Shown: in pieces, positions 186 through 34,923 of the stretch
Layout of the letters: the number at the start of each line of letters is the position of its first letter
How positions within the stretch are numbered: the stretch's first letter is position 1
Assembly (NCBI RefSeq): GCF_003334815.1
Contig: NZ_QOWO01000029.1
Reading direction: 5' to 3' (one strand)
DNA length: 52,109 nt
Source of the DNA: Escherichia coli
Lineage (GTDB): Bacteria > Pseudomonadota > Gammaproteobacteria > Enterobacterales > Enterobacteriaceae
Made by a program: the position numbers and the translations under genes
Notes under the pieces: generated by a model
The model's database searches: none
Told to the model about the DNA's origin: nothing
What the model saw: the letters and a program-made list of their open reading frames with translations, nothing else

Positions 186-806
186 TTAATCGTGTTGGCA
201 CAGCGTTATGACTATCTTTTCTTTTATCTGCCAGTGCACAGCAAACATCTCATTCTCACGATGAATGATGACCTGCTGTTTATTCCAGCTAATTATCTGA
301 TAGTCCAGAAAACCTGCATCAGTTTGGATCTCACTTGCCTTAAATGCGCTCTCTTTGGCGGAAAATGCCAGTGTCAGCGCCAGAGAAAAGGCTAAACCGC
401 AGTCTGCGAGTCGCTCGTGTTCCGTTGGTGTAATAATGTTGTCTGTCAATTCTCTTGCGGTTTGTACAGAAAAAATTTCTTCTATATCAATGCCAATCGG
501 TTGACGAGATACCACGGCTAATGCCGTAGTCCCACAGTGGCTAATACTGCCGTATACCTCCGCAGGCCAGACAGGTTGGCGTAGCTCGCCGATTGCGGGC
601 ACACATTTATAGCCATATTCCCGCAAAGCATAAACAGCAGCGATCCGTCCGGCTAAATGCTCTGTTTTACGTTTACGTCCAGCGTGTTGCAGTTGTGCGT
701 AGTGCGGCAGCCAGAGTAAATCCTGCTCACAAAAATTCGCCGGATCGAACTCAACAAAATGCAGCGTATGTCCGGCAAAGGGGAGGGAGGTATGCGTAGT
801 TTTCAT
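186..806 (-). CDS. entD: Phosphopantetheinyl transferase for EntB/EntF (206 aa)
   Basis: The 256-aa track ORF contains MKTTHTSLPFAGHTLHF..., matching EntD as recalled. Start placed at the internal ATG at 806 to give 206 aa; the upstream in-frame extension is presumed noncoding. Confidence 0.88.
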   Translation of the reverse strand: MKTTHTSLPFAGHTLHFVEFDPANFCEQDLLWLPHYAQLQHAGRKRKTEHLAGRIAAVYALREYGYKCVPAIGELRQPVWPAEVYGSISHCGTTALAVVSRQPIGIDIEEIFSVQTARELTDNIITPTEHERLADCGLAFSLALTLAFSAKESAFKASEIQTDAGFLDYQIISWNKQQVIIHRENEMFAVHWQIKEKIVITLCQHD

Positions 807-842
807 ATCGACCATATTCGAGACTGATGACAAACGCAAAAC

Positions 843-871
843 TGCCTGATGCGCTACGCTTATCAGGCCTA
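843..871. repeat. REP (palindromic unit), first half of a BIME between fepA and entD
   Basis: Imperfect palindrome gcctgatgcgctacgcttatcaggcctac, typical of E. coli REP elements. Confidence 0.65.
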
Positions 872-907
872 CATGGTCCTGCAATATATTGAATTGGCAA
901 GATTTTT

Positions 908-941
908 GTAGGCCGGATAAGGCGTTCACGCCGCATCCGGC
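908..941. repeat. REP (palindromic unit), second half of the BIME, inverted relative to 843-871
   Basis: gtaggccggataaggcgttcacgccgcatccggc is the classic REP consensus. The same unit recurs at 22842-22874. Confidence 0.75.
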
Positions 942-980
942 ATGAACGACGCGCACTTTGTCAACAATCTGACGTTAGCA

Positions 981-3221
981 TCAGAAGTGGGTGTTTACGC
1001 TCATATACCACGTACGTCCCGGCTCGTTATAGGTATACGCCCCGGCACCGGCGATATAGTTGGCCCCTGCCAAATCGCCCGTGGTCTGGGCATTACCCGC
1101 ACGCCACAAACGTTTGTCGAACAGATTGTCCACGCCGCCGGTCAGACTGACATTCTTCGTCACATCCCAGGTCGCGCTCAGGCCAACAATGCTGTAAGGA
1201 CTAATTTCTTTGGTTTCCGGTCCAACCGCTGGCTGACCTTTATAGTTGTACTTCTTCGGCTGCTGCTTGCCGTACCAGGTGAAGGTCGTTTGCATCGACA
1301 AATCTTCCCGTGCCTGCCAGCTCAGCGTTGAGTTCAACGTATACTCCGGGATGATCGACAAACGGTCGCCCGTGGTTTTGTTTTCACTCTTCAGCATATA
1401 AGTGATGTTATTGGTCCACATCACCGTTTCGCTAACCGGTACGTTTAACGATCCTTCCAGACCTTCAACCACCGCTTTCGGCACGTTATCCCACTGATAG
1501 AGATCGGTGCCGACTGCGTTTTGCCCTACAGCCACATAGCCCGCTTCAATCTTATTGCGATAATCGTTACGGAACCAGGTGACGCCCGCCAGCCACCCGT
1601 CGCGTTTGAACTCCAGACCAATCTCTTTGTTGATGCTGGTTTCTACTTTCAGGTCATCGTTACCTTGCAGATAGCAGCCGCCCGCGCTGGCATAGCAACC
1701 CTGACCTTTACTGTAGAGAATGTAGTTCGGGTTAGTCTGGTACAGGCTCGGCGCTTTATAAGCACGGGCGATGCCCATTTTCAGCGTGAAGTCATCGCCT
1801 AAACCTTGCGATATGTTCAGCGCCGGGCTCCAGTTATTGCCGACAATACTGTGATGATCGAAACGCAGCCCCGGCGTTACGATGGTGCTGTCAGTCAGCT
1901 CCATGTTGTTTTCGGCAAACAGCGAGAAAATTTCTGCTTTTGAATACGGGCTACGGTCGGTGGTACTCACGCCATCAATAGCGCCACCGGTATTCGTTCC
2001 GGTCAGTGCCTGGGTGTTGGAACTTAAGTCCTTCATCCGTTGCTGATTCCACTCCGTACCCAGCGTCAGCGTCTGGTTAACGAGGAAATCAATCGGCAGG
2101 TTAACTTCGCTGTGCAGCATCACGTCATCAAGATCGATATCGACGAAATCCTGTGTCGCTTTTTCGTTAAATTTCCCTTCGGTACCGCCCGCCAGACCTT
2201 CCGGAATACGCGAGTTACGGGTGTGTTCGTACTGCACCCAGTTGCTGGTGGTCACGCCGTTATCCCAGCCACCGTTCCAGGTCAGCGCGTAGTTCTGGCG
2301 ATACAGACGGTTGGTTTCATCGCCATATTTCGAGCGGGTATAGGAATCGGAGTTGGTATTCTGGGTGTCGCCCGCATACAGGTTACCCTGGCGGCTGTAA
2401 CCTGCTTCCAGTTCCAGCGATTGCAATGGCGCGAAATCCCAGCGCACCACGCCATTAATATCTTTGTTGATTACCCCTTCGCGCCCGGCTGGTAACGTCG
2501 TGGCATACGTTCCGGCACGCGCGGACTGATGGCCCTGGTTGATATCCCACGCGTCAGCCTGGGTTTTGTCGAGGTTGCCATACAAACGGAAGCTGAATTC
2601 GTCGCCCAGCGGACCGGTCAGGCTAAAGTTAGTGCGTTTGGTGGCACCTTCCTCTTTATGTTCTGGCGCATTGAAATATGCGTCCCAGGAGCCGTGCCAC
2701 TCGCCGCTGCCTTTTTTGGTAATGATGTTAACCACGCCGCCCGCCGCGCCGTTGCCATAACGCGCAGCTGCCGGACCACGCAGAACTTCAATACGTTCAA
2801 TCATTTCAGGTGGCACCCAGGAAGTATCACCACGGGTATCGCGCTCGCCACGCCAGCCCTGACGCACCGAGTTACGGCTGCTTACCGGCTTGCCGTCAAT
2901 CAAAATCAGCGTGTTTTCCGGACCCATACCGCGAATATCAATCTGTCGGTTATTCCCACGCTGACCACTGGTGGAGTTACCGGTCAGGTTAACGCCTGGC
3001 ATGGTACGGATGATCTCCGACACATCGCGGGCAACCGGGTTTTTGCGGATTTCATCTGCGGTGATGGTCGAAACGCCAGGCGCCTGTAAGTTCTGCTCGG
3101 CGGCGGTAACGACAATAGTATCGTCATGTGAAACAGGAGTATCGGTCGGCTCTTGTGCCTGCGCTACCCCATAAATCCCCAGATTGACCAACAAGGCCAG
3201 GGAATGAATCTTCTTGTTCAT
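981..3221 (-). CDS. fepA: TonB-dependent ferric enterobactin outer-membrane receptor (746 aa)
   Basis: Signal peptide MNKKIHSLALLVNLGIYGVAQA, TonB box DTIVVTA and C-terminal ...YMSVNTHF with terminal Phe. Start placed at the internal ATG at 3221 rather than the track's extended start. Confidence 0.95.
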   Translation of the reverse strand: MNKKIHSLALLVNLGIYGVAQAQEPTDTPVSHDDTIVVTAAEQNLQAPGVSTITADEIRKNPVARDVSEIIRTMPGVNLTGNSTSGQRGNNRQIDIRGMGPENTLILIDGKPVSSRNSVRQGWRGERDTRGDTSWVPPEMIERIEVLRGPAAARYGNGAAGGVVNIITKKGSGEWHGSWDAYFNAPEHKEEGATKRTNFSLTGPLGDEFSFRLYGNLDKTQADAWDINQGHQSARAGTYATTLPAGREGVINKDINGVVRWDFAPLQSLELEAGYSRQGNLYAGDTQNTNSDSYTRSKYGDETNRLYRQNYALTWNGGWDNGVTTSNWVQYEHTRNSRIPEGLAGGTEGKFNEKATQDFVDIDLDDVMLHSEVNLPIDFLVNQTLTLGTEWNQQRMKDLSSNTQALTGTNTGGAIDGVSTTDRSPYSKAEIFSLFAENNMELTDSTIVTPGLRFDHHSIVGNNWSPALNISQGLGDDFTLKMGIARAYKAPSLYQTNPNYILYSKGQGCYASAGGCYLQGNDDLKVETSINKEIGLEFKRDGWLAGVTWFRNDYRNKIEAGYVAVGQNAVGTDLYQWDNVPKAVVEGLEGSLNVPVSETVMWTNNITYMLKSENKTTGDRLSIIPEYTLNSTLSWQAREDLSMQTTFTWYGKQQPKKYNYKGQPAVGPETKEISPYSIVGLSATWDVTKNVSLTGGVDNLFDKRLWRAGNAQTTGDLAGANYIAGAGAYTYNEPGRTWYMSVNTHF

Positions 3222-3380
3222 TGTTTTATTCCTGCATTTTTGCCACGAATTGCAACTGTCGGGCATGGTCGTCATCAACACGACGCATCCCGCTACCGCG
3301 AAAACCTTTGATCCTGAAAGACACGCAGTGCAGTTGGTTAATTAATGTCCGCGCTTCCCACGGCGCGCCATTACGCTATT

Positions 3381-3418
3381 GCAAATGCAAATAGTTATCA
3401 ATAATATTATCAATATAT
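3381..3418. promoter_or_regulatory. Fur-box-like AT-rich operator in the divergent fepA/fes promoter region
   Basis: gcaaatgcaaatagttatcaataatattatcaatat resembles the Fur consensus GATAATGATAATCATTATC. It sits between divergent iron-uptake genes. Confidence 0.55.
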
Positions 3419-3463
3419 TTCTGCAATCAATGAAAAATTGCACAGTAAACATGGGGTTATGGT

Positions 3464-4666
3464 GTGACGGCGTTAAAAGTAGGAAGTGAGAGCTGGTGGC
3501 AGTCGAAACATGGCCCGGAATGGCAGCGTCTGAATGACGAAATGTTTGAGGTCACTTTCTGGTGGCGTGATCCCCAAGGTTCTGAAGAATACTCGACGAT
3601 AAAGCGCGTATGGGTCTACATCACTGGTGTGACCGATCACCATCAGAACAGCCAGCCCCAGTCGATGCAGCGAATTGCAGGCACTAACGTCTGGCAGTGG
3701 ACGACACAACTCAATGCCAACTGGCGCGGCAGCTACTGCTTTATTCCCACCGAACGCGATGACATTTTTTCTGTACCATCCCCCGATCGCCTCGAATTGC
3801 GCGAAGGCTGGCGAAAACTATTACCCCAGGCGATAGCCGATCCGCTGAACCTACAAAGCTGGAAAGGCGGGCGAGGGCACGCTGTTTCTGCACTCGAAAT
3901 GCCGCAAGCGCCTCTGCAACCGGGATGGGATTGTCCGCAAGCGCCAGAAATACCTGCCAAAGAAATTATCTGGAAAAGTGAACGGTTGAAAAAGTCACGG
4001 CGTGTATGGATTTTTACCACCGGCGATGCAACAGCAGAAGAACGCCCGCTGGCAGTTTTGCTCGATGGCGAATTTTGGGCGCAAAGTATGCCCGTCTGGC
4101 CAGTGCTGACTTCGCTGACCCATCGTCAGCAACTTCCTCCCGCCGTGTATGTGTTGATCGACGCTATCGACACCACGCACCGCGCCCACGAACTGCCGTG
4201 TAATGCGGATTTCTGGCTCGCAGTACAGCAAGAGTTATTACCCCTGGTGAAAGCTATTGCCCCTTTTAGCGATCGTGCCGATCGCACCGTGGTTGCCGGG
4301 CAGAGTTTTGGTGGGCTTTCCGCGCTGTATGCCGGACTGCACTGGCCTGAACGCTTTGGCTGTGTATTAAGCCAGTCAGGATCGTACTGGTGGCCGCATC
4401 GGGGCGGGCAGCAAGAGGGCGTGTTACTTGAAAAGCTAAAAGCTGGTGAAGTTAGCGCCGAAGGTCTGCGCATTGTGCTGGAAGCGGGTATTCGCGAGCC
4501 GATGATCATGCGGGCCAATCAGGCGCTGTATGCGCAATTACACCCCATAAAAGAATCCATTTTCTGGCGTCAGGTTGACGGCGGACATGATGCGCTTTGT
4601 TGGCGCGGTGGCTTGATGCAGGGGCTAATCGACCTCTGGCAACCACTTTTCCATGACAGGAGTTGA
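3464..4666 (+). CDS. fes: Enterochelin (ferric enterobactin) esterase
   Basis: 400-aa ORF starting at GTG 3464, with esterase GxSxG motif (GQSFGG). An alternative internal ATG (MFEV...) would give 374 aa. Confidence 0.88.
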   Translation: MTALKVGSESWWQSKHGPEWQRLNDEMFEVTFWWRDPQGSEEYSTIKRVWVYITGVTDHHQNSQPQSMQRIAGTNVWQWTTQLNANWRGSYCFIPTERDDIFSVPSPDRLELREGWRKLLPQAIADPLNLQSWKGGRGHAVSALEMPQAPLQPGWDCPQAPEIPAKEIIWKSERLKKSRRVWIFTTGDATAEERPLAVLLDGEFWAQSMPVWPVLTSLTHRQQLPPAVYVLIDAIDTTHRAHELPCNADFWLAVQQELLPLVKAIAPFSDRADRTVVAGQSFGGLSALYAGLHWPERFGCVLSQSGSYWWPHRGGQQEGVLLEKLKAGEVSAEGLRIVLEAGIREPMIMRANQALYAQLHPIKESIFWRQVDGGHDALCWRGGLMQGLIDLWQPLFHDRS

Positions 4667-4668
4667 AT

Positions 4669-4887
4669 ATGGCATTCAGTAATCCCTTCGATGATCCGCA
4701 GGGAGCGTTTTACATATTGCGCAATGCGCAGGGGCAATTCAGTCTGTGGCCGCAACAATGCGTCTTACCGGCAGGCTGGGACATTGTGTGTCAGCCGCAG
4801 TCACAGGCGTCCTGCCAGCAGTGGCTGGAAGCCCACTGGCGTACTCTGACACCGACGAATTTTACCCAGTTGCAGGAGGCACAATGA
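4669..4887 (+). CDS. ybdZ: MbtH-like protein (72 aa), NRPS adenylation-domain partner
   Basis: MAFSNPFDDPQGAFYILRNAQGQFSLWP... with conserved Trp residues. Its stop overlaps the entF start (ATGA at 4884-4887). Confidence 0.85.
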   Translation: MAFSNPFDDPQGAFYILRNAQGQFSLWPQQCVLPAGWDIVCQPQSQASCQQWLEAHWRTLTPTNFTQLQEAQ

Positions 4888-7800
4888 GCCAGCATTTACC
4901 TTTGGTCGCCGCACAGCCCGGCATCTGGATGGCAGAAAAACTGTCAGAATTACCCTCCGCCTGGAGCGTGGCGCATTACGTTGAGTTAACCGGAGAGGTT
5001 GATTCGCCATTACTGGCCCGCGCGGTGGTTGCCGGACTAGCGCAAGCAGATACGCTGCGGATGCGTTTTACGGAAGATAACGGCGAAGTCTGGCAGTGGG
5101 TCGATGATGCGCTGACGTTCGAACTGCCAGAAATTATCGACCTACGAACCAACATTGATCCGCACGGTACTGCGCAGGCATTAATGCAGGCGGATTTGCA
5201 ACAAGATCTGCGCGTCGATAGCGGTAAACCACTGGTCTTTCATCAGCTGATACAGGTGGCGGATAACCGCTGGTACTGGTATCAGCGTTATCACCATTTG
5301 CTGGTCGATGGCTTTAGTTTCCCGGCCATTACCCGCCAGATCGCCAATATTTACTGCACATGGCTGCGTGGCGAACCAACGCCTGCTTCGCCATTTACGC
5401 CTTTCGCTGATGTAGTGGAAGAGTACCAGCAATACCGCGAAAGCGAAGCCTGGCAGCGTGATGCGGCATTCTGGGCAGAACAGCGTCGTCAACTGCCGCC
5501 GCCCGCGTCACTTTCTCCGGCACCTTTACCGGGGCGCAGCGCCTCGGCAGATATTCTGCGCCTGAAACTGGAATTTACCGACGGGGAATTCCGCCAGCTG
5601 GCTACGCAACTTTCAGGTGTGCAGCGTACCGATTTAGCCCTTGCGCTGGCAGCCTTGTGGCTGGGGCGATTGTGCAATCGTATGGACTACGCCGCCGGAT
5701 TTATCTTTATGCGTCGACTGGGCTCGGCGGCGCTGACGGCTACCGGACCCGTGCTCAACGTTTTGCCGTTGGGTATTCACATTGCGGCGCAAGAAACGCT
5801 GCCGGAACTGGCAACCCGACTGGCAGCACAACTGAAAAAAATGCGTCGTCATCAACGTTACGATGCCGAACAAATTGTCCGTGACAGCGGGCGAGCGGCA
5901 GGTGATGAACCGCTGTTTGGTCCGGTACTCAATATCAAGGTATTTGATTACCAACTGGATATTCCTGATGTTCAGGCGCAAACCCATACCCTGGCAACCG
6001 GTCCGGTTAATGACCTTGAACTGGCCCTGTTCCCGGATGTACACGGTGATTTGAGTATTGAGATCCTCGCCAATAAACAGCGTTACGATGAGCCAACGTT
6101 AATCCAGCATGCTGAACGCCTGAAAATGCTGATTGCCCAGTTCGCCGCGGATCCGGCGCTGTTGTGCGGCGATGTCGATATTATGCTGCCAGGTGAGTAT
6201 GCGCAGCTGGCGCAGCTCAACGCCACTCAGGTTGAGATTCCAGAAACCACGCTTAGCGCGCTGGTGGCAGAACAAGCGGCAAAAACACCGGATGCTCCGG
6301 CGCTGGCAGATGCGCGTTACCTGTTCAGCTATCGGGAAATGCGCGAGCAGGTGGTGGCGCTGGCGAATCTGCTGCGTGAGCGCGGCGTTAAACCAGGGGA
6401 CAGCGTGGCGGTGGCACTACCGCGCTCGGTCTTTTTGACCCTGGCACTCCATGCGATAGTTGAAGCTGGAGCGGCCTGGCTACCGCTGGATACCGGCTAT
6501 CCGGACGATCGCCTGAAAATGATGCTGGAAGATGCGCGTCCGTCGCTGTTAATTACCACCGACGATCAACTGCCGCGCTTTAGCGATGTTCCCAATTTAA
6601 CAAGCCTTTGCTATAACGCCCCGCTTACACCGCAGGGCAGTGCGCCGCTGCAACTTTCACAACCGCATCACACGGCTTATATCATCTTTACCTCTGGCTC
6701 CACCGGCAGGCCGAAAGGGGTAATGGTCGGGCAGACGGCTATCGTCAACCGCCTGCTTTGGATGCAAAATCATTATCCGCTTACAGGCGAAGATGTCGTT
6801 GCCCAAAAAACGCCGTGCAGTTTTGATGTCTCGGTGTGGGAGTTTTTCTGGCCGTTTATCGCAGGGGCAAAACTGGTGATGGCTGAACCGGAAGCGCACC
6901 GCGACCCGCTCGCTATGCAGCAATTCTTTGCCGAATATGGCGTAACGACCACGCACTTTGTGCCGTCGATGCTGGCGGCATTTGTTGCCTCGCTGACGCC
7001 GCAAACCGCTCGCCAGAGTTGCGCGACGTTGAAACAGGTTTTCTGTAGTGGTGAGGCCTTACCGGCTGATTTATGCCGCGAATGGCAACAGTTAACTGGC
7101 GCGCCGTTGCATAATCTATATGGCCCGACGGAAGCGGCGGTAGATGTCAGCTGGTATCCGGCTTTTGGCGAGGAACTGGCACAGGTGCGCGGCAGCAGTG
7201 TGCCGATTGGTTATCCGGTATGGAATACGGGTCTGCGTATTCTTGATGCGATGATGCATCCGGTGCCGCCGGGTGTGGCGGGTGATCTCTATCTCACTGG
7301 CATTCAACTGGCGCAGGGCTATCTCGGACGCCCCGATCTGACCGCCAGCCGCTTTATTGCCGATCCTTTTGCCCCAGGTGAACGGATGTACCGTACCGGA
7401 GACGTTGCCCGCTGGCTGGATAACGGCGCGGTGGAGTACCTCGGGCGCAGTGATGATCAGCTAAAAATTCGCGGGCAGCGTATCGAACTGGGCGAAATCG
7501 ATCGCGTGATGCAGGCGCTGCCGGATGTCGAACAAGCCGTTACCCACGCCTGTGTGATTAACCAGGCGGCTGCCACCGGTGGTGATGCGCGTCAATTGGT
7601 GGGCTATCTGGTGTCGCAATCGGGCCTGCCGTTGGATACCAGCGCATTGCAGGCGCAGCTTCGTGAAACATTGCCACCACATATGGTACCGGTGGTTCTG
7701 CTGCAACTTCCACAGTTACCACTTAGCGCCAACGGCAAGCTGGATCGCAAAGCCTTACCGTTGCCTGAACTGAAGGCACAAGCGCCAGGGCGTGCGCCGA

Positions 7801-8765
7801 AAGCGGGCAGTGAAACGATTATCGCCGCGGCATTCTCGTCGTTGCTGGGGTGTGACGTGCAGGATGCCGATGCTGATTTCTTCGCGCTTGGCGGTCATTC
7901 GCTACTGGCAATGAAACTGGCAGCGCAGTTAAGTCGGCAGGTTGCCCGCCAGGTGACGCCGGGGCAAGTGATGGTCGCGTCAACTGTCGCCAAACTGGCA
8001 ACGATTATTGATGCTGAAGAAGACAGCACCCGGCGTATGGGATTCGAAACCATTCTGCCGTTGCGTGAAGGTAATGGCCCGACGCTGTTTTGTTTCCATC
8101 CTGCGTCCGGTTTTGCCTGGCAGTTCAGCGTGCTCTCGCGTTATCTCGATCCACAATGGTCGATTATCGGCATTCAGTCACCGCGCCCCAATGGCCCCAT
8201 GCAGACGGCGGCAAACCTGGATGAAGTCTGCGAAGCGCATCTGGCAACGTTACTTGAACAACAACCGCATGGCCCTTATTACCTGCTGGGGTATTCCCTT
8301 GGCGGTACGCTGGCGCAGGGTATTGCGGCGCGACTGCGTGCCCGTGGCGAACAGGTGGCATTTCTTGGCTTGCTGGATACCTGGCCGCCAGAAACGCAAA
8401 ACTGGCAGGAAAAAGAAGCTAATGGTCTGGACCCGGAAGTGCTGGCGGAGATTAACCGCGAACGCGAGGCCTTCCTGGCAGCACAGCAGGGAAGTACTTC
8501 AACGGAGTTGTTTACCACCATTGAAGGCAACTACGCTGATGCTGTGCGCCTGCTGACGACTGCTCATAGCGTACCGTTTGACGGTAAAGCGACGCTGTTT
8601 GTTGCTGAACGCACACTTCAGGAAGGTATGAGTCCCGAACGCGCCTGGTCGCCGTGGATAGCGGAGCTGGATATCTATCGTCAGGATTGTGCGCATGTGG
8701 ATATTATCTCTCCAGGGACGTTTGAAAAAATTGGGCCGATTATTCGCGCAACGCTAAACAGGTAA
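4884..8765 (+). CDS. entF: Enterobactin synthase component F, NRPS module C-A-PCP-TE (1293 aa)
   Basis: Adenylation core motifs FTSGSTGRPKG and YRTGD, PCP motif LGGHSLLA, thioesterase GYSLGG. Start placed at MSQHLPLVAAQPGIW. Confidence 0.95.
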   Translation: MSQHLPLVAAQPGIWMAEKLSELPSAWSVAHYVELTGEVDSPLLARAVVAGLAQADTLRMRFTEDNGEVWQWVDDALTFELPEIIDLRTNIDPHGTAQALMQADLQQDLRVDSGKPLVFHQLIQVADNRWYWYQRYHHLLVDGFSFPAITRQIANIYCTWLRGEPTPASPFTPFADVVEEYQQYRESEAWQRDAAFWAEQRRQLPPPASLSPAPLPGRSASADILRLKLEFTDGEFRQLATQLSGVQRTDLALALAALWLGRLCNRMDYAAGFIFMRRLGSAALTATGPVLNVLPLGIHIAAQETLPELATRLAAQLKKMRRHQRYDAEQIVRDSGRAAGDEPLFGPVLNIKVFDYQLDIPDVQAQTHTLATGPVNDLELALFPDVHGDLSIEILANKQRYDEPTLIQHAERLKMLIAQFAADPALLCGDVDIMLPGEYAQLAQLNATQVEIPETTLSALVAEQAAKTPDAPALADARYLFSYREMREQVVALANLLRERGVKPGDSVAVALPRSVFLTLALHAIVEAGAAWLPLDTGYPDDRLKMMLEDARPSLLITTDDQLPRFSDVPNLTSLCYNAPLTPQGSAPLQLSQPHHTAYIIFTSGSTGRPKGVMVGQTAIVNRLLWMQNHYPLTGEDVVAQKTPCSFDVSVWEFFWPFIAGAKLVMAEPEAHRDPLAMQQFFAEYGVTTTHFVPSMLAAFVASLTPQTARQSCATLKQVFCSGEALPADLCREWQQLTGAPLHNLYGPTEAAVDVSWYPAFGEELAQVRGSSVPIGYPVWNTGLRILDAMMHPVPPGVAGDLYLTGIQLAQGYLGRPDLTASRFIADPFAPGERMYRTGDVARWLDNGAVEYLGRSDDQLKIRGQRIELGEIDRVMQALPDVEQAVTHACVINQAAATGGDARQLVGYLVSQSGLPLDTSALQAQLRETLPPHMVPVVLLQLPQLPLSANGKLDRKALPLPELKAQAPGRAPKAGSETIIAAAFSSLLGCDVQDADADFFALGGHSLLAMKLAAQLSRQVARQVTPGQVMVASTVAKLATIIDAEEDSTRRMGFETILPLREGNGPTLFCFHPASGFAWQFSVLSRYLDPQWSIIGIQSPRPNGPMQTAANLDEVCEAHLATLLEQQPHGPYYLLGYSLGGTLAQGIAARLRARGEQVAFLGLLDTWPPETQNWQEKEANGLDPEVLAEINREREAFLAAQQGSTSTELFTTIEGNYADAVRLLTTAHSVPFDGKATLFVAERTLQEGMSPERAWSPWIAELDIYRQDCAHVDIISPGTFEKIGPIIRATLNR

Positions 8766-8780
8766 ATTAATATTATTTAT

Positions 8781-8818
8781 AAACCCATAATTACAGAAAA
8801 TAATTATGGGTTTTTTAT
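8781..8818 (+). terminator. Rho-independent terminator downstream of entF
   Basis: Hairpin aaacccataatta / taattatgggttt followed by a T-run. Confidence 0.7.
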
Positions 8819-8980
8819 TTGTTTGATTTATAGGTTTGATGAATATTTCTCTTAAATAGAGTGAATGTTGCATTCAGTGGAAGGAATTTACAAACTTCAG
8901 CTTCGGATAATTATCACCAACTGGTAAAGTGAGCGCCGTGGAGATTTCCCCCTATTGGACTCATTTTCAGGTTATACCCC

Positions 8981-10114
8981 ATGTCATCACTGAATATTAA
9001 ACAGGGAAGTGACGCTCATTTTCCCGATTATCCTCTGGCGTCGCCCAGTAATAATGAAATTGATTTACTTAATCTAATCTCAGTTTTATGGCGGGCCAAA
9101 AAAACGGTCATGGCGGTCGTTTTTGCGTTTGCCTGCGCAGGCTTGCTGATCTCTTTCATCCTGCCGCAAAAATGGACCAGCGCGGCGGTTGTCACGCCTC
9201 CAGAACCTGTTCAGTGGCAAGAGTTGGAGAAATCATTCACTAAGCTTCGTGTGCTGGATCTGGATATCAAAATTGATCGTACAGAAGCATTTAACCTGTT
9301 TATCAAGAAGTTTCAGTCGGTTAGCTTGCTGGAAGAGTACCTGCGTTCATCACCTTATGTGATGGACCAATTAAAAGAGGCGAAAATCGACGAACTGGAT
9401 TTGCATCGCGCAATTGTCGCATTGAGCGAAAAAATGAAAGCGGTTGATGACAATGCCAGTAAGAAAAAAGATGAACCGTCACTGTATACCTCCTGGACGC
9501 TAAGTTTTACCGCGCCAACCAGTGAAGAGGCGCAGACCGTTTTGAGCGGGTATATCGATTATATCTCTACGTTGGTGGTGAAAGAGTCGCTAGAAAACGT
9601 CCGTAATAAACTGGAGATCAAAACCCAGTTTGAAAAAGAAAAACTGGCTCAGGATCGCATTAAAACGAAAAATCAACTTGATGCAAACATTCAGCGCCTC
9701 AATTATTCACTCGACATTGCCAACGCGGCAGGAATTAAAAAGCTCGTTTACAGTAATGGTCAGGCCGTTAAAGATGACCCCGATTTTTCTATTTCTCTCG
9801 GTGCAGACGGTATTGAACGCAAACTGGAAATAGAAAAAGCGGTCACTGACGTTGCGGAACTGAACGGTGAATTACGTAATCGGCAGTATCTTGTCGAGCA
9901 ATTAACAAAAGCACATGTCAACGATGTGAATTTTACGCCGTTTAAATATCAGTTAAGCCCGTCATTGCCAGTGAAAAAAGACGGTCCGGGTAAGGCGATT
10001 ATTGTGATCCTTTCCGCGTTGATCGGCGGGATGGTGGCTTGTGGTGGCGTGCTGTTGCGCTATGCGATGGCATCCAGAAAACAGGATGCCATGATGGCAG
10101 ACCACTTAGTTTAA
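8981..10114 (+). CDS. fepE: Wzz-like polysaccharide co-polymerase family protein (377 aa)
   Basis: Track ORF of the expected length and position, with an N-terminal transmembrane segment. Confidence 0.85.
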   Translation: MSSLNIKQGSDAHFPDYPLASPSNNEIDLLNLISVLWRAKKTVMAVVFAFACAGLLISFILPQKWTSAAVVTPPEPVQWQELEKSFTKLRVLDLDIKIDRTEAFNLFIKKFQSVSLLEEYLRSSPYVMDQLKEAKIDELDLHRAIVALSEKMKAVDDNASKKKDEPSLYTSWTLSFTAPTSEEAQTVLSGYIDYISTLVVKESLENVRNKLEIKTQFEKEKLAQDRIKTKNQLDANIQRLNYSLDIANAAGIKKLVYSNGQAVKDDPDFSISLGADGIERKLEIEKAVTDVAELNGELRNRQYLVEQLTKAHVNDVNFTPFKYQLSPSLPVKKDGPGKAIIVILSALIGGMVACGGVLLRYAMASRKQDAMMADHLV

Positions 10115-10926
10115 CTATTTGCGGTTGAAGGTGCCGTTCGTCCGAGCGGCACCACAAGCGGCGTTCCGGCAACTGGATCGTCAATGATCATGCAGCGCAG
10201 ACCATAAATGCGCTCAATCAGTTCAGCAGTGACAATCTCCTTCGGCGCTCCCTGAGCAACAATTTTCCCTTCCCGCAATGCAATCAAATGGCTGGCGTAA
10301 CGACAGGCCTGATTAAGATCGTGCAGCACCGCCGCCAGGGTATAGCCTTTTTCGCGGTTCAGTTCGCTTAACAACTCCAGCAAATCAATCTGATGACTGA
10401 TATCCAGCCAGGTCGTGGGTTCGTCGAGCAGCATAATTGCCGTTTCCTGGGCCAGCACCATCGCGATCCACGCTCGCTGGCGTTGTCCGCCAGAAAGGGT
10501 ATCCACGCTTTGATCTGCCAGATGAGTTATTCCCGTGGCCTGCATTGCTTTCGTTACCGCTTCTTCATCCTCTTTGCGCCAGCGGGTAAACAGCGGTTGA
10601 TGCGGATAACGTCCACGCGCCACCAGCTCCTGCACGGTGATATCGCCCGGCGTGGTAGCATTTTGCGCCAACAGACCAATCCGGCGTGCAACCTCTTTAC
10701 TGGCGTAATGTTGAATGTGCTCGCCATCCAGCCAGACATGCCCATGAGCAGGCGTCATCAGGCGGCTTAAGGTACGCAGTAACGTGGATTTACCGCAGCC
10801 ATTTGGCCCGATAATTGCCGTGAAGTGACCATCAGGTATTTCTACAGTCAGATTTTCCGCAACGGTATATTTGCCATATCCCAGGGTTAACTGTTCGCCG
10901 CGCAAACGGGCTACTGATTCGGTCAT
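10111..10926 (-). CDS. fepC: Ferric enterobactin ABC transporter ATPase (271 aa)
   Basis: Walker A GPNGCGKST and ABC signature LSGGQRQR. Start placed at MTESVARLRGEQL. Its stop overlaps the convergent fepE stop. Confidence 0.92.
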   Translation of the reverse strand: MTESVARLRGEQLTLGYGKYTVAENLTVEIPDGHFTAIIGPNGCGKSTLLRTLSRLMTPAHGHVWLDGEHIQHYASKEVARRIGLLAQNATTPGDITVQELVARGRYPHQPLFTRWRKEDEEAVTKAMQATGITHLADQSVDTLSGGQRQRAWIAMVLAQETAIMLLDEPTTWLDISHQIDLLELLSELNREKGYTLAAVLHDLNQACRYASHLIALREGKIVAQGAPKEIVTAELIERIYGLRCMIIDDPVAGTPLVVPLGRTAPSTANS

Positions 10927-11915
10927 TTTTTGCGAGACTCCTGAATTAACAAGACGATAAGGTAAATACCGCCGAGGCTGACGGTAACGACGCCAACCGG
11001 AAGTTGATACGGCATAAACAGTTGTTGGGCGCAGAGATCGGCCGCCAGCAGTAACAGCGCCCCGCATAGCGCCGCCTGGGTTAGCCCCCAGCGAGCGGTG
11101 CCGCTAATGCGTCGGGCAATGTGCGGTGCGACTAAAGCAATAAAGGAAATCGGCCCGGCAAGCGCTGTTGCCGCAGCGGTAAGCACCACTGCAACCAGCA
11201 TCATTAACAGACGCGAACGTTCGACGCTGACGCCCAGCGCACACGCGGTATCATCGCCCATTTCCAGCAAGCGCATCCGGCGTACCAGTAAGGCGGCGGC
11301 AATGAGCATCAATATAATGATGGGTGCGGAAGGCGAGGTTTTTGCCCACGTCAGGCCGTTGAGCGATCCGGCATTCCACAAACCTGCTGTTAGCGCCGTT
11401 TCTAAAGACGCTTTCAGCAACAGCCAGGTATTAAAGGCCACCAGCATGGCGCGAACGCCGATACCGATAATAATCAACCGAAAGGTGTCGATGCCGTTGC
11501 GCCAGGCGAGCAGCCAGACCAGCAGCGAAGTGACAATGCCGCCCACCATTGCTGACAGCGCGATAGCCGTCAGGTCCTGACCAAACAGCACCATCGCCAC
11601 CAGCACGCCGCTCCACGCCCCGGTGTTAAAGCCCATTACGTCAGGGCTGCCGAGCGGGTTACGCATCAGCGACTGAAAAATCGCGCCACTGACGCCCAGT
11701 GCTGCGCCAATCAACAGCGCCATCAGCACGCGTGGTAAACGCCATTCGGTGACCACCATCGTCATACTGCGCGGCGCATCGCCCATCAGCGCGGCGAATA
11801 CCTGCGAGGTTTCCAGCGTGACGGCACCGCTGCGTAATCCCCAGATACCTGCAACCACACAGGCGGAAACCAGCAGCAAACAGGTGATGAGTAATCGGCG
11901 AGAGACGTAAATCAT
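10923..11915 (-). CDS. fepG: Ferric enterobactin ABC transporter permease (330 aa)
   Basis: Polytopic membrane ORF of the FecCD family, 4-nt overlap with fepC. Confidence 0.9.
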   Translation of the reverse strand: MIYVSRRLLITCLLLVSACVVAGIWGLRSGAVTLETSQVFAALMGDAPRSMTMVVTEWRLPRVLMALLIGAALGVSGAIFQSLMRNPLGSPDVMGFNTGAWSGVLVAMVLFGQDLTAIALSAMVGGIVTSLLVWLLAWRNGIDTFRLIIIGIGVRAMLVAFNTWLLLKASLETALTAGLWNAGSLNGLTWAKTSPSAPIIILMLIAAALLVRRMRLLEMGDDTACALGVSVERSRLLMMLVAVVLTAAATALAGPISFIALVAPHIARRISGTARWGLTQAALCGALLLLAADLCAQQLFMPYQLPVGVVTVSLGGIYLIVLLIQESRKK

Positions 11916-12916
11916 GCACCACCTCGCGTTTTACGTCGCACGAGGAAGATCAGCACCGGTGCACCAATAAACGCACTGACCACAGAAACGCGCAGTTCGC
12001 CGGGCACAATCACCCGCCCGATGATATCGGCAAACAGCAGCAGGGCAGGGGTAGCAAGTAGCGTGACGGGCAGCGACCAGCGATGATCGGCACCCACCAG
12101 CCAACGCGCCATATGCGGCATCATCAGGCCAATAAAGGCAATCGGGCCAACTATTGCCGTCGCACTACCACAAAGCACGGTAATCGCCAGCAGACCAATC
12201 AACTGTGTGCGCGCCACGCGACTGCCCAGCGCCGTCGCGGTGTCGCTGCCGAGGCTCAAACTGTTCAGCGCGCGACTCAGTAATAGCGCAGTTGCTCCGG
12301 CGATCAGCACCGGGATCAGCACCACTTTTAAGGTATGTAGATTGCGAATATCCAGCGAACCGGCTTGCCAGAAACGCAACTGATCGTAGACGTCAGGATT
12401 AAGCAGGGCGATGCCGCTGGTCAGTCCTTCCAGCACCGCCGCCAGCGCCACGCCCGCCAGGGTTAAACGCACCGGACTTAACTGCCCGCCGCCCTGACTG
12501 CCGGTAAAGGCAACAATCAATGAGGCCACCAGCGCCCCGGCGAAGGCCATCGCCAGTTGTTCCTGCGCGGAAGAGTAACCAAACAGCGCCGCACCCAGCA
12601 CAATGGCAAAGCTGGCTCCGGCGTTCACGCCAAGCAAGCCGGGGTCGGCAAGTGGGTTTCGGGTGAGGGTTTGCATTAACGCCCCGGCAAGGCCAAGCGC
12701 GCCGCCTGCCAGTAAACCGGCAAGGGTACGCGGCAGCCGCGCGTCGAGCACGATGGTGCAGTCGGCGCTCTGGCAGGTGCCGGAGAAGGCCTCCAGCACT
12801 ACGGAAGCGGGGAGTGATTTTGCCCCAATGAGCAGGCTTAATGCCGTCGCGATAATCAGTAATAACAGCAATCCGGGCACGGCAATGGCGCGTGTCACGG
12901 CAACAGAACCAGACAT
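11912..12916 (-). CDS. fepD: Ferric enterobactin ABC transporter permease (334 aa)
   Basis: Polytopic membrane ORF overlapping fepG by 4 nt. Start chosen at MSGSVAV; an in-frame ATG four codons upstream (12928) is an alternative. Confidence 0.88.
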   Translation of the reverse strand: MSGSVAVTRAIAVPGLLLLLIIATALSLLIGAKSLPASVVLEAFSGTCQSADCTIVLDARLPRTLAGLLAGGALGLAGALMQTLTRNPLADPGLLGVNAGASFAIVLGAALFGYSSAQEQLAMAFAGALVASLIVAFTGSQGGGQLSPVRLTLAGVALAAVLEGLTSGIALLNPDVYDQLRFWQAGSLDIRNLHTLKVVLIPVLIAGATALLLSRALNSLSLGSDTATALGSRVARTQLIGLLAITVLCGSATAIVGPIAFIGLMMPHMARWLVGADHRWSLPVTLLATPALLLFADIIGRVIVPGELRVSVVSAFIGAPVLIFLVRRKTRGGA

Positions 12917-12927
12917 ACGAACTTCCA

Positions 12928-12955
12928 TGATAATGAAATTAATTATCGTTATCGA
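12928..12955. promoter_or_regulatory. Fur box in the divergent fepD/entS promoter
   Basis: gataatgaaattaattatcgttatc is a close match to the Fur consensus. Confidence 0.65.
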
Positions 12956-13026
12956 TCTTATTTGGATATGTTAGCATGTGCAGCCTAAGAATAGGTATTT
13001 AAAATATTTGATGGCAAGGCATTGTA

Positions 13027-14277
13027 ATGAATAAACAATCCTGGCTGCTTAACCTCAGCCTGTTGAAAACGCACCCGGCGTTTCGCGCAGTATTCCTCGC
13101 TCGTTTCATCTCAATTGTGTCTCTGGGTTTGCTCGGCGTCGCGGTGCCGGTGCAGATCCAGATGATGACACATTCCACCTGGCAGGTGGGGCTTTCGGTG
13201 ACGCTGACCGGCGGCGCGATGTTTGTTGGCCTGATGGTCGGCGGTGTGCTGGCGGATCGCTATGAGCGCAAAAAAGTGATTTTGCTGGCGCGCGGCACCT
13301 GTGGCATTGGCTTCATTGGACTGTGCCTTAATGCACTGCTGCCGGAGCCGTCATTGCTGGCAATCTATTTACTTGGTTTATGGGATGGTTTTTTCGCATC
13401 GCTTGGCGTTACGGCGCTATTGGCGGCGACACCAGCACTGGTAGGGCGTGAAAACTTAATGCAGGCCGGGGCGATCACCATGTTGACCGTGCGTCTGGGG
13501 TCGGTGATTTCGCCCATGATTGGCGGTTTATTGCTGGCGACCGGTGGCGTAGCCTGGAACTACGGGCTGGCGGCGGCGGGCACGTTTATTACCTTGCTAC
13601 CGTTGTTAAGCCTTCCGGCGTTGCCACCGCCACCGCAGCCGCGTGAGCATCCGTTGAAATCATTACTGGCAGGATTTCGTTTTCTGCTTGCCAGCCCGCT
13701 GGTGGGCGGGATTGCGCTGCTGGGTGGTTTATTGACGATGGCGAGCGCGGTGCGGGTACTGTATCCGGCGCTGGCTGACAACTGGCAGATGTCAGCGGCA
13801 CAGATTGGTTTTCTCTACGCGGCGATCCCGCTCGGCGCGGCTATTGGTGCGTTAACCAGCGGGAAGCTGGCACATAGTGCGCGACCAGGGTTATTGATGC
13901 TGCTCTCCACGCTGGGATCGTTCCTCGCCATTGGTCTGTTTGGCCTGATGCCGATGTGGATTTTAGGCGTGGTTTGTCTGGCGCTGTTCGGCTGGTTGAG
14001 TGCGGTCAGCTCGTTGCTGCAATACACAATGCTGCAAACGCAAACCCCGGAAGCGATGTTAGGGCGGATTAACGGTTTGTGGACGGCGCAGAACGTGACG
14101 GGCGATGCCATAGGCGCGGCGCTGCTGGGTGGTTTGGGCGCGATGATGACACCGGTTGCTTCCGCAAGCGCGAGCGGTTTTGGTTTGTTGATTATCGGCG
14201 TGTTGTTATTGCTGGTGCTGGTGGAGTTGCGACATTTTCGCCAGACGCCGCCGCAGGTGACAGCGTCCGACAGTTAA
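13027..14277 (+). CDS. entS: Enterobactin exporter, MFS transporter (416 aa)
   Basis: Twelve-helix-like hydrophobic ORF in the expected position and length. Confidence 0.9.
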
Positions 14278-14280
14278 TGC

Positions 14281-15237
14281 TTAAAACAGCGCCTTAAGCC
14301 TATCCAGCACTTGCATGGCGCTGTAGTAATCCAGACGGAACGTCTCGGTTCCCAGCGCATAAACCTGCTTGTTTTGTACTGCAGGCAGGTGCGCGAGCAG
14401 CGGATTAGCATAAATAGCATCGGCATCTTTCTGATCACCGGCGAACAGGAATAGTGACTCGCCATTTAACCCTGCAGCCAGATTTTCCCCACCAAGCTGA
14501 ATGATGTCATGGCGTTTACCCTGACTTTGGCTGGCATTTAACCCTGCGGGTAACTTCGCCAGCGTAAAGCCGAGTTGTTCCAGCATCTGCCCTTGTGCTG
14601 ATTCTGGCGTCCAGAGATTGGCACTGTGTGCAGCGGCAGTATAGACAATGGCAGTGACCGGCTGCGGCGGTAATTTGATTTGCTCTTTCGCCGCCGCCAG
14701 TTGCTTATCAAACTGCGCAATCCGCTCTGCCGCTTGTTTCTCATGCCCGGTAATTTCGCCAAGTTGCGTTAACAGCGACTGCCAGCTTTTGTCGTCGTAA
14801 TTGATGATTAATGTCGGGGCGATGGTGGAAAGCTGATCATACAGTGCCAGCGCCGAATCCCCGCCGGTTGCGCTAATTAAAATCAGATCCGGCATTTGCG
14901 CGGCAACGGCTTCGGCGCTCGGTTCGCCGATATAGAGCCGTTGCAGTTTGCGTTCTTTCGCCACCTTGCTCCACTGGCGTAAAAAGCCCTGGTCATCCGC
15001 GACGCGGTTATTCGGCGTGGTCGCGCCGCTGGCGATCACCGGAGCATCAATCGCCAGCAGTGAGCCGGTCAGGGTGACGCTGGTGGAAACAATACGCTGC
15101 GGCTGGCTTTCCAGTGTATGTGTGCCACGGCTGTCAGTAATCTGACGCGGCCAGTCAGCGGCCTGAACTGCGGCTATTCCTGAAAGCAAAAGTCCTGTTA
15201 ATAGAAGGGCGTTGCGGTAGAGCGGGGCGAGTCTCAC
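14281..15237 (-). CDS. fepB: Periplasmic ferric enterobactin binding protein (318 aa)
   Basis: Signal peptide followed by a periplasmic binding protein fold. Only 3 nt separate it from the convergent entS stop. Confidence 0.9.
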
Positions 15238-15302
15238 AAATCAGCTTCCTGTTATTAATAAGGTTAAGGGCGTAATGACAAATTCGACAAAGCGCACAAT
15301 CC

Positions 15303-15342
15303 GTCCCCTCGCCCCTTTGGGGAGAGGGTTAGGGTGAGGGGA
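15303..15342. repeat. GC-rich small intergenic repeat, copy A, in the fepB leader
   Basis: gtcccctcgcccctttggggagagggttagggtgagggga. A degenerate inverted copy lies at 15367-15406 and a close inverted copy at 22775-22816. Confidence 0.55.
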
Positions 15343-15366
15343 ACAGCCAGCACTGGTGCGAACATT

Positions 15367-15406
15367 AACCCTCACCCCAGCCCTCACCCTGGAAGGGAGA
15401 GGGGGC
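15367..15406. repeat. GC-rich small intergenic repeat, degenerate inverted copy B, in the fepB leader
   Basis: aaccctcaccccagccctcaccctggaagggagagggggc is partly complementary to copy A, so the pair could fold into a long stem in the fepB 5' UTR. Confidence 0.45.
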
Positions 15407-15562
15407 AGAACGGCGCAGGACATCACATTGCGCTTATGCGAATCCATCAATAATGCTTCTCATTTTCATTGTAACCACAACCAGATGCAACCCCGAGTTG
15501 CAGATTGCGTTACCTCAAGAGTTGACATAGTGCGCGTTTGCTTTTAGGTTAGCGACCGAAAA

Positions 15563-15585
15563 TATAAATGATAATCATTATTAAA
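15563..15585. promoter_or_regulatory. Fur box in the divergent fepB/entC promoter
   Basis: ataaatgataatcattatt is a near-perfect match to GATAATGATAATCATTATC, about 30 bp upstream of entC. Confidence 0.75.
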
Positions 15586-15611
15586 GCCTTTATCATTTTG
15601 TGGAGGATGAT

Positions 15612-16787
15612 ATGGATACGTCACTGGCTGAGGAAGTACAGCAGACCATGGCAACACTTGCGCCCAATCGCTTTTTCTTTATGTCGCCGTACCGCAGTTT
15701 TACGACGTCAGGATGTTTCGCCCGCTTCGATGAACCGGCTGTGAACGGGGATTCGCCCGACAGTCCCTTCCAGCAAAAACTCGCCGCGCTGTTTGCCGAT
15801 GCCAAAGCGCAGGGCATCAAAAATCCGGTGATGGTCGGGGCGATTCCCTTCGATCCACGTCAGCCTTCGTCGCTGTATATTCCTGAATCCTGGCAGTCGT
15901 TCTCCCGTCAGGAAAAACAAGCTTCCGCACGCCGTTTCACCCGCAGCCAGTCGCTGAATGTGGTGGAACGCCAGGCAATTCCGGAGCAAACCACGTTTGA
16001 ACAGATGGTTGCCCGCGCCGCCGCACTTACCGCCACGCCGCAGGTCGACAAAGTGGTGTTGTCACGGTTGATTGATATCACCACTGACGCCGCCATTGAT
16101 AGTGGCGTATTGCTGGAACGGTTGATTGCGCAAAACCCGGTTAGTTACAACTTCCATGTTCCGCTGGCTGATGGTGGCGTCCTGCTGGGGGCCAGCCCGG
16201 AACTGCTGCTACGTAAAGACGGCGAGCGTTTTAGCTCCATTCCGTTAGCCGGTTCCGCGCGTCGTCAGCCGGATGAAGTGCTCGATCGCGAAGCAGGTAA
16301 TCGTCTGCTGGCGTCAGAAAAAGATCGCCATGAACATGAACTGGTGACTCAGGCGATGAAAGAGGTACTGCGCGAACGCAGTAGTGAGTTACACGTTCCT
16401 TCTTCTCCACAGCTGATCACCACGCCGACGCTGTGGCATCTCGCAACTCCCTTTGAAGGTAAAGCGAATTCGCAAGAAAACGCACTGACTCTGGCCTGTC
16501 TGCTGCATCCGACCCCCGCGCTGAGCGGTTTCCCGCATCAGGCCGCGACCCAGGTTATTGCTGAACTGGAACCGTTCGACCGCGAACTGTTTGGCGGCAT
16601 TGTGGGTTGGTGTGACAGCGAAGGTAACGGCGAATGGGTGGTGACCATCCGCTGCGCGAAGCTGCGGGAAAATCAGGTGCGTCTGTTTGCCGGAGCGGGG
16701 ATTGTGCCTGCGTCGTCACCGTTGGGTGAGTGGCGCGAAACAGGCGTCAAACTTTCTACCATGTTGAACGTTTTTGGATTGCATTAA
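15612..16787 (+). CDS. entC: Isochorismate synthase (391 aa)
   Basis: Chorismate-binding enzyme family. Start placed at [11 protein letters not shown]. Confidence 0.92.
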
Positions 16788-16796
16788 GGAGCGAGG

Positions 16797-18407: not shown

Positions 18408-18420
18408 AGGAGAGAACACG

Positions 18421-19277
18421 ATGGCTATTCCAAAATTACAGGCTTACGCACTGCCGGAGTCTCACGATATTCCGCAGAATAAAGTTGACTGGGCCTTTGA
18501 ACCGCAACGTGCCGCGTTGTTAATCCATGATATGCAGGACTATTTTGTCAGCTTCTGGGGCGAGAACTGCCCGATGATGGAGCAGGTGATCGCGAATATT
18601 GCTGCGCTGCGCGACTACTGCAAACAGCACAATATCCCGGTTTATTACACCGCCCAGCCGAAAGAGCAGAGCGATGAAGATCGGGCGCTGTTGAATGATA
18701 TGTGGGGGCCGGGCCTGACCCGCTCGCCGGAACAGCAAAAGGTGGTGGATCGCCTGACGCCAGATGCCGACGACACGGTGCTGGTGAAGTGGCGCTACAG
18801 CGCGTTTCATCGTTCTCCGCTGGAGCAAATGCTGAAAGAGAGTGGACGTAACCAGCTGATTATTACCGGGGTATATGCCCACATTGGCTGTATGACCACC
18901 GCAACCGACGCATTTATGCGCGATATTAAACCGTTTATGGTGGCGGATGCGCTGGCCGATTTCAGCCGTGACGAGCATTTGATGTCGCTGAAATATGTGG
19001 CCGGACGTTCTGGCCGGGTGGTGATGACTGAAGAATTACTGCCAGCACCTATCCCCGCCAGCAAAGCGGCGCTGCGTGAGGTGATCCTGCCGTTGCTGGA
19101 CGAGTCCGATGAACCGTTCGATGACGACAACCTGATCGACTACGGTCTGGATTCGGTGCGCATGATGGCGCTGGCGGCGCGCTGGCGCAAAGTGCATGGT
19201 GATATCGACTTTGTCATGCTGGCGAAAAACCCGACCATCGACGCCTGGTGGAAGCTACTCTCCCGCGAGGTGAAATA

Positions 19278-19278
<1 letters not shown>
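18421..19278 (+). CDS. entB: Isochorismatase / aryl carrier protein (285 aa)
   Basis: N-terminal isochorismatase domain and C-terminal carrier motif DYGLDSVRMMAL. Confidence 0.95.
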
Positions 19279-20440
<1,162 letters not shown>

Positions 20441-34694: not shown

Positions 34695-34923
34695 TTTTAC
34701 TCCATGTCGTCGGTGCTGCGAGTGTCGCAGATAAACATACCCAAAAGAAAACCCTCACCGTCAGGCGGCGAGGGTTTAACTCACATGATGATACTGACTG
34801 TTGCTCACTCTTTGAAGTGATTTGCGTCACATTCAGGGAATTCCTCAATGCAGCGCATTATGTATAAATCTTAATCGCCTTGGTTTATGGAAGACGAATT
34901 AGCGTGTTTTGTAAATCAGATGA

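Follow-up and report, generated by a model that had tools for sequence, protein, structure and literature searches.

How many operators for the regulator Fur serve the enterobactin genes of Escherichia coli, and which promoters does each of them control? We take up this question in a 52,109-nucleotide stretch of E. coli DNA (contig NZ_QOWO01000029.1 of assembly GCF_003334815.1; this whole stretch is hereafter the window, and position 1 is its first letter). An earlier note, made from the letters alone, had proposed one Fur-like operator in each of three divergent promoter regions (3381-3418 between fepA and fes, 12928-12955 between fepD and entS, and 15563-15585 between fepB and entC), and with them coordinated iron-dependent repression of every transcription unit of a complete enterobactin cluster. 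The evidence supports a slightly different answer, namely four operator clusters in three intergenic regions, for six transcription units, and we are close to certain that the sites are the long-known Fur operators of the E. coli enterobactin regulon. These operators were characterized by the McIntosh and de Lorenzo laboratories, footprinted from 1988 to 2002, modeled in 2007, and mapped by chromatin immunoprecipitation with exonuclease digestion (ChIP-exo) from 2014 to 2023. They are already textbook knowledge, and no new biology is added here; what the analysis does provide is an example of real regulatory sites being located from sequence alone, along with a correction of the operator count from three to four.

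Over 22,727 nt, the window differs from strain MG1655 by four single-nucleotide polymorphisms, all of them coding, and no base differs in the intergenic regions; the window carries the enterobactin locus of E. coli K-12. Because of this near-identity, published K-12 data can be transferred straight onto it (window position = NC_000913.3 minus 609273 = NC_000913.2 minus 608496). The 777-bp shift between the two versions was cross-checked using the ChIP-exo peaks of fiu and fhuE, which fall on motif positions of the version-3 sequence.

Matrix scores of the Fur sites

The sequence at 3381-3418 is GCAAATGCAAATAGTTATCAATAATATTATCAATATAT, that at 12928-12955 is TGATAATGAAATTAATTATCGTTATCGA (including GATAATGAAATTAATTATC), and that at 15563-15585 is TATAAATGATAATCATTATTAAA (including ATAAATGATAATCATTATT). 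Compared with the classical Fur 19-mer consensus, GATAATGATAATCATTATC, agreement is 16/19 at 12929-12947 (GATAATGAAATTAATTATC), 15/19 at 15564-15582 (ATAAATGATAATCATTATT), and 13/19 at 3381-3399. A search with this consensus that allows up to three mismatches recovers the fepD/entS box alone, and at four to six mismatches the genuine sites are intermixed with matches in coding sequence. Consensus counting was thus non-discriminating, and we therefore used a weight matrix. The matrix was built de novo, through an unseeded expectation-maximization motif search, from 19 Fur-regulated MG1655 promoters outside the ent system, a set chosen to avoid circularity (fhuA, fiu, fhuE, tonB, sufA, ydiE, cirA, mntH, nrdH, exbB, nfeF, feoA, ryhB, sodA, fecA, fecI, fhuF, fur, and yncE). 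The resulting motif, AATGATAATCATTATCATT, carries 19.4 bits and corresponds to the Fur box in a frame displaced by 3 bp from the classical 19-mer; under their own matrix, the training sites range from 16.2 to 25.7 bits. Across both strands of the 52-kb window (104,000 positions), seven matches reach at least 12 bits, and all of them lie in four places:

3384-3402, fepA/fes, 20.3 bits
15452-15470, fepB, 18.6 bits
12938-12956, fepD/entS, 17.4 bits
12932-12950, fepD/entS, 14.8 bits
15567-15585, entC, matches on both strands, 16.8 and 14.4 bits
15561-15579, entC, 12.0 bits

The matches that follow, at 7.5 and 7.3 bits, lie inside the fepB operator, and the maximum away from the four operators is 7.3 bits. 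The best scores of the four operators (20.3 bits for fepA/fes, 17.4 for fepD/entS, 18.6 for fepB, and 16.8 for entC) all fall within the range of the training sites. The three sites named in the earlier note, represented by the 20.3-, 17.4-, and 16.8-bit matches, are borne out where it had placed them, and stand far above chance rather than below background.

Might such scores nevertheless be chance by-products of AT-rich promoter DNA, arising from -10 hexamers and UP-like tracts without any specific Fur function? The intergenic regions are indeed AT-rich (GC content 0.31-0.47), the Fur consensus is similar to -10 hexamers, and a simple sigma-70 scan takes parts of Fur boxes for hexamers; that scan yields one useful promoter (fepA), and elsewhere calls the Fur boxes themselves. 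However, dinucleotide shuffles of the whole window give an expectation of 0.435 matches of at least 12 bits, against the seven observed, and when the three intergenic regions are shuffled with their composition preserved, the observed maximum is attained in 0, 4, and 0 of 2000 trials. Beyond this, all other intergenic regions of the 52 kb stay at or below 7.3 bits, and the footprints, ChIP-exo peaks, and cross-genus conservation described below all fall on the sites. Taken together, the shuffled controls and the binding reported in the literature rule out chance AT-richness, to which we give practically no credence.

Read as Fur operators, the four places make the locus a good positive control for Fur-site scanners, with four operators at 12 bits or above and at most 7.3 bits elsewhere in 52 kb. 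As a separate observation, dinucleotide-shuffled windows reach a mean maximum of 11.4 bits (standard deviation 2.5), above the off-operator maximum of 7.3 bits in the real sequence, a difference that hints at a depletion of spurious Fur-like sites, or merely at coding constraints.

Operators, footprints, and promoters

The matrix matches coincide with segments that Fur protects in vitro. Converted to window coordinates from the limits that Chen et al. 2007 give in their Table 3 (PMC2189734; NC_000913.2 numbering at the end of each line), the operators, which are listed unstranded, are as follows:

3372..3419, fepA-fes Fur operator, DNase I footprint 611868-611915
12898..12966, fepD-entS Fur operator, DNase I footprint 621394-621462, including secondary protection
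15443..15473, fepB Fur operator, DNase I footprint 623939-623969
15558..15606, entC Fur operator, DNase I footprint 624054-624102

All matrix matches of at least 12 bits and all three intervals of the earlier note fall within these footprints, of which the intervals span 38/48, 28/69, and 23/49 bp, respectively. Occupancy in vivo follows iron: MG1655 Fur ChIP-exo peaks located at or adjoining all four operators belong to class "R", found under iron-replete conditions only (Gao et al. 2023, PMC10164565, Dataset 2). Mapped onto the window, they lie at 3415-3427 (fepA-fes), 12941-12963 and 12951-12969 (fepD-entS), 15438-15476 (fepB), and 15547-15591 (entC), such that each interval of the earlier note coincides with or adjoins one of them. 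The same study assigns the fep and ent genes to the core Fur regulon (nine E. coli strains), and reports strong upregulation of most siderophore-synthesis genes upon deletion of fur (PMC10164565). Footprints, iron-replete-only peaks, and core-regulon membership thus support the proposal of coordinated iron-dependent repression of every unit.

A different protein might be the principal ligand of these operators, for example RcsAB, CRP, H-NS, or another member of the Fur family, with Fur in a secondary role; RcsAB is a co-regulator of entC in Klebsiella pneumoniae, where it protects part of the entC promoter (PMC7298118). The K. pneumoniae RcsAB site is distinct from the Fur site, however (PMC7298118), the E. 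coli sites fit a matrix learned from Fur-bound promoters alone, and iron-dependent Fur binding has been published both in vitro and in vivo. We consider a leading role for another regulator exceedingly improbable, and treat the sites as Fur operators in what follows.

The fepA-fes operator consists of a core at 3384-3402 (20.3 bits) and a weak overlapping site at 3396-3414 (4.4 bits), offset by 12 bp. Two promoters are predicted around it, that of fes from the sequence and that of fepA from a consensus scan together with the sequence:

3379..3407, plus strand, putative fes promoter: TTGCAA (3379-3384), 17-nt spacer, TAATAT (3402-3407), start at about 3414
3401..3430, minus strand, putative fepA promoter: TTGATT (3430-3425), 18-nt spacer, TATTAT (3406-3401), start at about 3395

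The -10 hexamers of the two promoters overlap on opposite strands, and their predicted starts are 19 bp apart, equal to the mapped separation of the fepA and fes starts as it is quoted in PMC4469952. A single operator would here cover both -10 hexamers, the fes -35 hexamer, and the fepA start, blocking both divergent promoters together.

At fepD-entS, the operator core is at 12932-12956 (17.4 and 14.8 bits, 6 bp apart), and the classical box is at 12929-12947. Conservation in this region is continuous from the Fur box through TATGTTAGCATG (12967-12978), of which 10 of 12 columns are invariant in a 13-sequence alignment covering about 10 genera, and which begins with a block that is of interest for both promoters:

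12967..12973, unstranded, conserved block TATGTTA: putative entS -10 TATGTT (plus strand, 12967-12972) and candidate fepD -10 TAACAT (minus strand, 12973-12968)

TATGTT is likely the entS -10 hexamer, with a start near 12979, and on this assignment the -35 region of entS would be covered by the operator. The same single operator would, for fepD, lie downstream of the promoter, over the early transcribed part, in agreement with the published description of the cluster as situated between promoter and start codon (Chen 2007, PMC2189734).

Between fepB and entC lie two operators, each with its own promoter and its own footprint, at a distance of about 109 bp. The fepB operator (15446-15470) comprises a core at 15452-15470 (18.6 bits) and a weaker site at 15446-15464 (7.5 bits); the entC operator comprises a core at 15561-15585 (16.8, 14.4, and 12.0 bits) and a weak site at 15579-15597 (4.9 bits). 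The promoters predicted for the two genes are:

15462..15490, minus strand, putative fepB promoter: TTGCAT (15490-15485), 17-nt spacer, GAAAAT (15467-15462), start at about 15455, within the operator
15522..15550, plus strand, putative entC promoter: TTGACA (15522-15527), 17-nt spacer, TAGGTT (15545-15550), start at about 15557

In an alignment of Escherichia, Citrobacter, and Salmonella, the entC hexamers are invariant and the fepB hexamers conserved. With an entC start near 15557, the entC operator would span about +1 to +49; it would thus overlie the start of entC and the first part of the transcript. The fepB operator, for its part, would overlap the -10 hexamer and start of fepB.

It is in this region that a count of exactly three Fur boxes, with a single box in each intergenic region that is common to both divergent promoters, fepB and entC included, meets its difficulty. 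That count draws on the fact that fepA/fes and fepD/entS each have one matrix cluster and one footprint for both promoters, and on reviews that describe three bidirectional control regions. Yet fepB-entC has two footprints, two ChIP-exo peaks, and two matrix clusters 109 bp apart, and the fepB site is the second-best match in the whole window. Moreover, each "box" is in fact a cluster of overlapping sites, and two to three dimers have been measured on two of them: the Lavrrar and McIntosh data quoted in PMC2189734 give two Fur dimers on the fepB site, with a dissociation constant of 8.6 nM, and three on the entS site, with an apparent dissociation constant of 3.0 nM. One box common to fepB and entC is refuted by the two separate footprints (15443-15473 and 15558-15606), and we judge the count of three very unlikely to be right. 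The sharing of one operator by a divergent pair, as the earlier note had it, therefore stands for fepA/fes and for fepD/entS; given the second, fepB-specific footprint, its "fepB/entC" box is the entC operator only, serving entC alone, and the fepB operator at 15443-15473 had been missed.

Returning to the four-operator arrangement, sites within a cluster are offset by 6 bp at 12932/12938, 15446/15452, and 15561/15567, and by 12 bp at 3384/3396; these offsets fit the published model of overlapping Fur dimers on different faces of the helix (Chen 2007, PMC2189734). Putative promoter hexamers overlap or adjoin each operator. Under iron sufficiency, Fe2+-loaded Fur dimers would occupy arrays of overlapping 19-bp sites at 6- or 12-bp spacing, and the arrays, lying over core promoter elements, would keep RNA polymerase off all six transcription units; under iron starvation, Fur would be released, and enterobactin synthesis, export, uptake, and hydrolysis would be derepressed together. 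In this scheme, the specificity, position, and conservation of the sites are results of the present analysis, and in vitro protection, iron-dependent occupancy in vivo, and core-regulon membership are those of published experiments. The exact hexamers and starts of fepB, entC, entS, and fepD, and hence the steric details, we infer from the DNA sequence; a literature search found no usable genome-wide start-site dataset.

Conservation, an insertion at fepB, and caveats

Relatives were collected using a degenerate pattern for the EntC peptide FFMSPYRSF, which returned 117 stretches in species-representative genomes, nearly all of them Enterobacteriaceae (Escherichia, Citrobacter, Salmonella, Enterobacter, Klebsiella, Raoultella, and Kosakonia, and also Leclercia, Lelliottia, Buttiauxella, Cedecea, Pluralibacter, and Kluyvera); gene order was confirmed by tblastn. 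The operators are conserved in the orthologous promoters of these species. An entC-proximal cluster of at least 10 bits is present in all 93 of the 93 evaluable fepB-entC regions, and a second, fepB-side cluster passes the same threshold in 67 of them. The fepD-entS region contains exactly one cluster in 53/53 cases, mostly about 70-95 bp upstream of entS, and both of the two loci that reach fepA-fes carry a site there at the same offset from fes (22.6 bits in Pluralibacter and 21.9 bits in Buttiauxella). Among 5426 complete E. coli genomes, 5390-5417 (>99%) carry the operator segments at 95% identity or more, the figure for fepA-fes being 5390.

In Escherichia, Citrobacter, and Enterobacter, the fepB and entC operators stand 109 bp apart; in other genera the distance is 98, 103, 116, or 168 bp. 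With a range of 98-168 bp among genera, a fixed helical phasing between the two is unsupported. In Salmonella enterica subsp. arizonae, an additional segment, about 120 bp long, separates the entC Fur box from the ribosome-binding site and start of entC, and moves the operator to -173..-149. We take this segment to resemble an ERIC/IRU repeat.

A further difference among genomes concerns the fepB leader. The fepB-entC spacer measures 374 bp in the window, versus about 187 bp in most relatives, other Escherichia included. An insertion of about 187 bp (approximately 15265-15451), polymorphic and absent from other Escherichia and from Citrobacter, starts about 4 nt downstream of the predicted fepB start and abuts the fepB Fur operator core. 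It contains two inverted BoxC/PIT/TMECO motifs (consensus taken from PMC4666352), at 15306-15340 on the plus strand and 15369-15403 on the minus strand, and the predicted fold of the fepB leader RNA is a hairpin about 170 nt long (-93.2 kcal/mol, z-score -5.5). The leader repeat occurs at scattered places (median 6 per E. coli genome), and at least 80% of a 214-bp leader query is matched in 2721 of the 5426 complete genomes, about half. Part of the weak second Fur site of fepB comes from the right end of the insert; the site scores 7.5 bits with the insert versus 1.8-4.0 bits without it. It is conceivable, although we think it rather unlikely, that the insertion makes fepB repression or translation strain-dependent, and that a ChIP-exo peak at 15309-15334, within one of the BoxC motifs, reflects Fur spreading or looping, not an artefact.

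Several observations qualify the picture of four Fur operators controlling all six units, and need to be set beside the evidence above. That same peak is one of three (3232-3265, 15309-15334, and 15755-15786) that lie 140-195 bp from the nearest operator and have no matrix match above 0 bits; a second of the three is within entC, and all might be artefacts, crosslinked polymerase, or Fur spreading. In eight Klebsiella and Raoultella loci, matrix scores on the fepB side run from below 0 to about 5 bits although the entC-side operator is present, which means either that fepB is under different control there or that its site has diverged beyond the matrix. At fepD-entS, early microarrays registered little repression, and no strong predicted sigma-70 promoter overlaps the cluster (Chen 2007, PMC2189734). 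In addition, the footprint limits are second-hand, being those of Table 3 in PMC2189734, and the transcription starts other than those of fepA and fes are predictions. We regard these points as caveats, and found among them no contradiction of Fur binding.

Neighboring genes and known systems

Gene calls for the cluster follow RefSeq, which annotates near-identical DNA in two E. coli genomes, one of them MG1655, and the list of open reading frames is concordant with them:

186..3221, minus strand, fepA-entD transcription unit: outer-membrane receptor and phosphopantetheinyl transferase
186-806, minus strand, entD
981-3221, minus strand, fepA
3464..10114, plus strand, fes-ybdZ-entF-fepE transcription unit
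3464-4666, plus strand, fes, esterase
4669-4887, plus strand, ybdZ, MbtH-like protein
4884-8765, plus strand, entF, non-ribosomal peptide synthetase
8981-10114, plus strand, fepE, chain-length regulator
10111-12916, minus strand, fepC, fepG, and fepD (fepDGC), permeases and ATPase of an ABC importer
13027-14277, plus strand, entS, enterobactin exporter
14281-15237, minus strand, fepB, periplasmic binding protein
15612-20440, plus strand, entCEBAH, 2,3-dihydroxybenzoate synthesis and activation, and a proofreading thioesterase

The genes entCEBA, entD, entF, ybdZ, entH, entS, fepA, fepBCDG, and fes are all found, arranged as three divergent pairs; the cluster is complete, as the earlier note had said, and every gene that it listed is annotated by RefSeq on the near-identical DNA. 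For fepD, an in-frame ATG at 12926-12928 (minus strand) lies four codons upstream of the annotated start at 12916, inside the Fur box, and the mechanically generated list of open reading frames places fepD at 11912-12928, versus the RefSeq start of 12916. Between the stop codon of fepA and the start of entD, there is a match to the Rfam small RNA ES036 (CssrF) at 865-906 on the minus strand (40.5 bits versus a gathering score of 37.6). Outside the ent cluster, Rfam matches above the gathering score are an rnk leader at 34740-34848 (minus strand, 124.9 bits), a cspA-type thermoregulator at 47834-48276 (plus strand, 124.1 bits), and STnc70 at 29434-29527 (plus strand, 42.7 bits).

Positions 3000-16000 match all 5426 complete E. 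coli genomes, with at least 80% covered in 5413 of them. In four genomes (NZ_OY757949.1, NZ_CP148385.1, NZ_CP033096.1, and NZ_CP063332.1), this segment is matched at 100% identity in two pieces, the span in the record being longer by about 0.8-1.2 kb, and in one of the four entF is annotated as separate domain fragments; this suggests the insertion of an insertion sequence inside the ent cluster of these genomes.

Compared with known systems, the operators described here are the same object as the enterobactin Fur operators of K-12 (fepA-fes, fepDGC-entS, fepB, and entC; PMC2189734): coordinates, footprints, and ChIP-exo peaks are identical, and there is no difference from the MG1655 operators, as the four polymorphisms of the window are in coding sequence only. 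The aerobactin iucA operator of ColV-K30, the prototype Fur box, is likewise an overlapping array of GATAAT type over a promoter, and shares with them a primary footprint with extended secondary protection at higher Fur concentrations (PMC2189734); the ent operators, unlike that of iucA, have 2-4 sites in a compact arrangement, and at two of them the promoters served are divergent and overlap. At the orthologous position in K. pneumoniae NTUH-K2044, the entC promoter carries a 29-base Fur footprint (PMC7298118), and the entC-proximal cluster was found in every Klebsiella and Raoultella locus scanned. However, on the fepB side the matrix score is weak (2-5 bits) in Klebsiella and Raoultella, and the NTUH-K2044 entC promoter, unlike its E. 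coli counterpart, has an RcsAB site in addition (PMC7298118).

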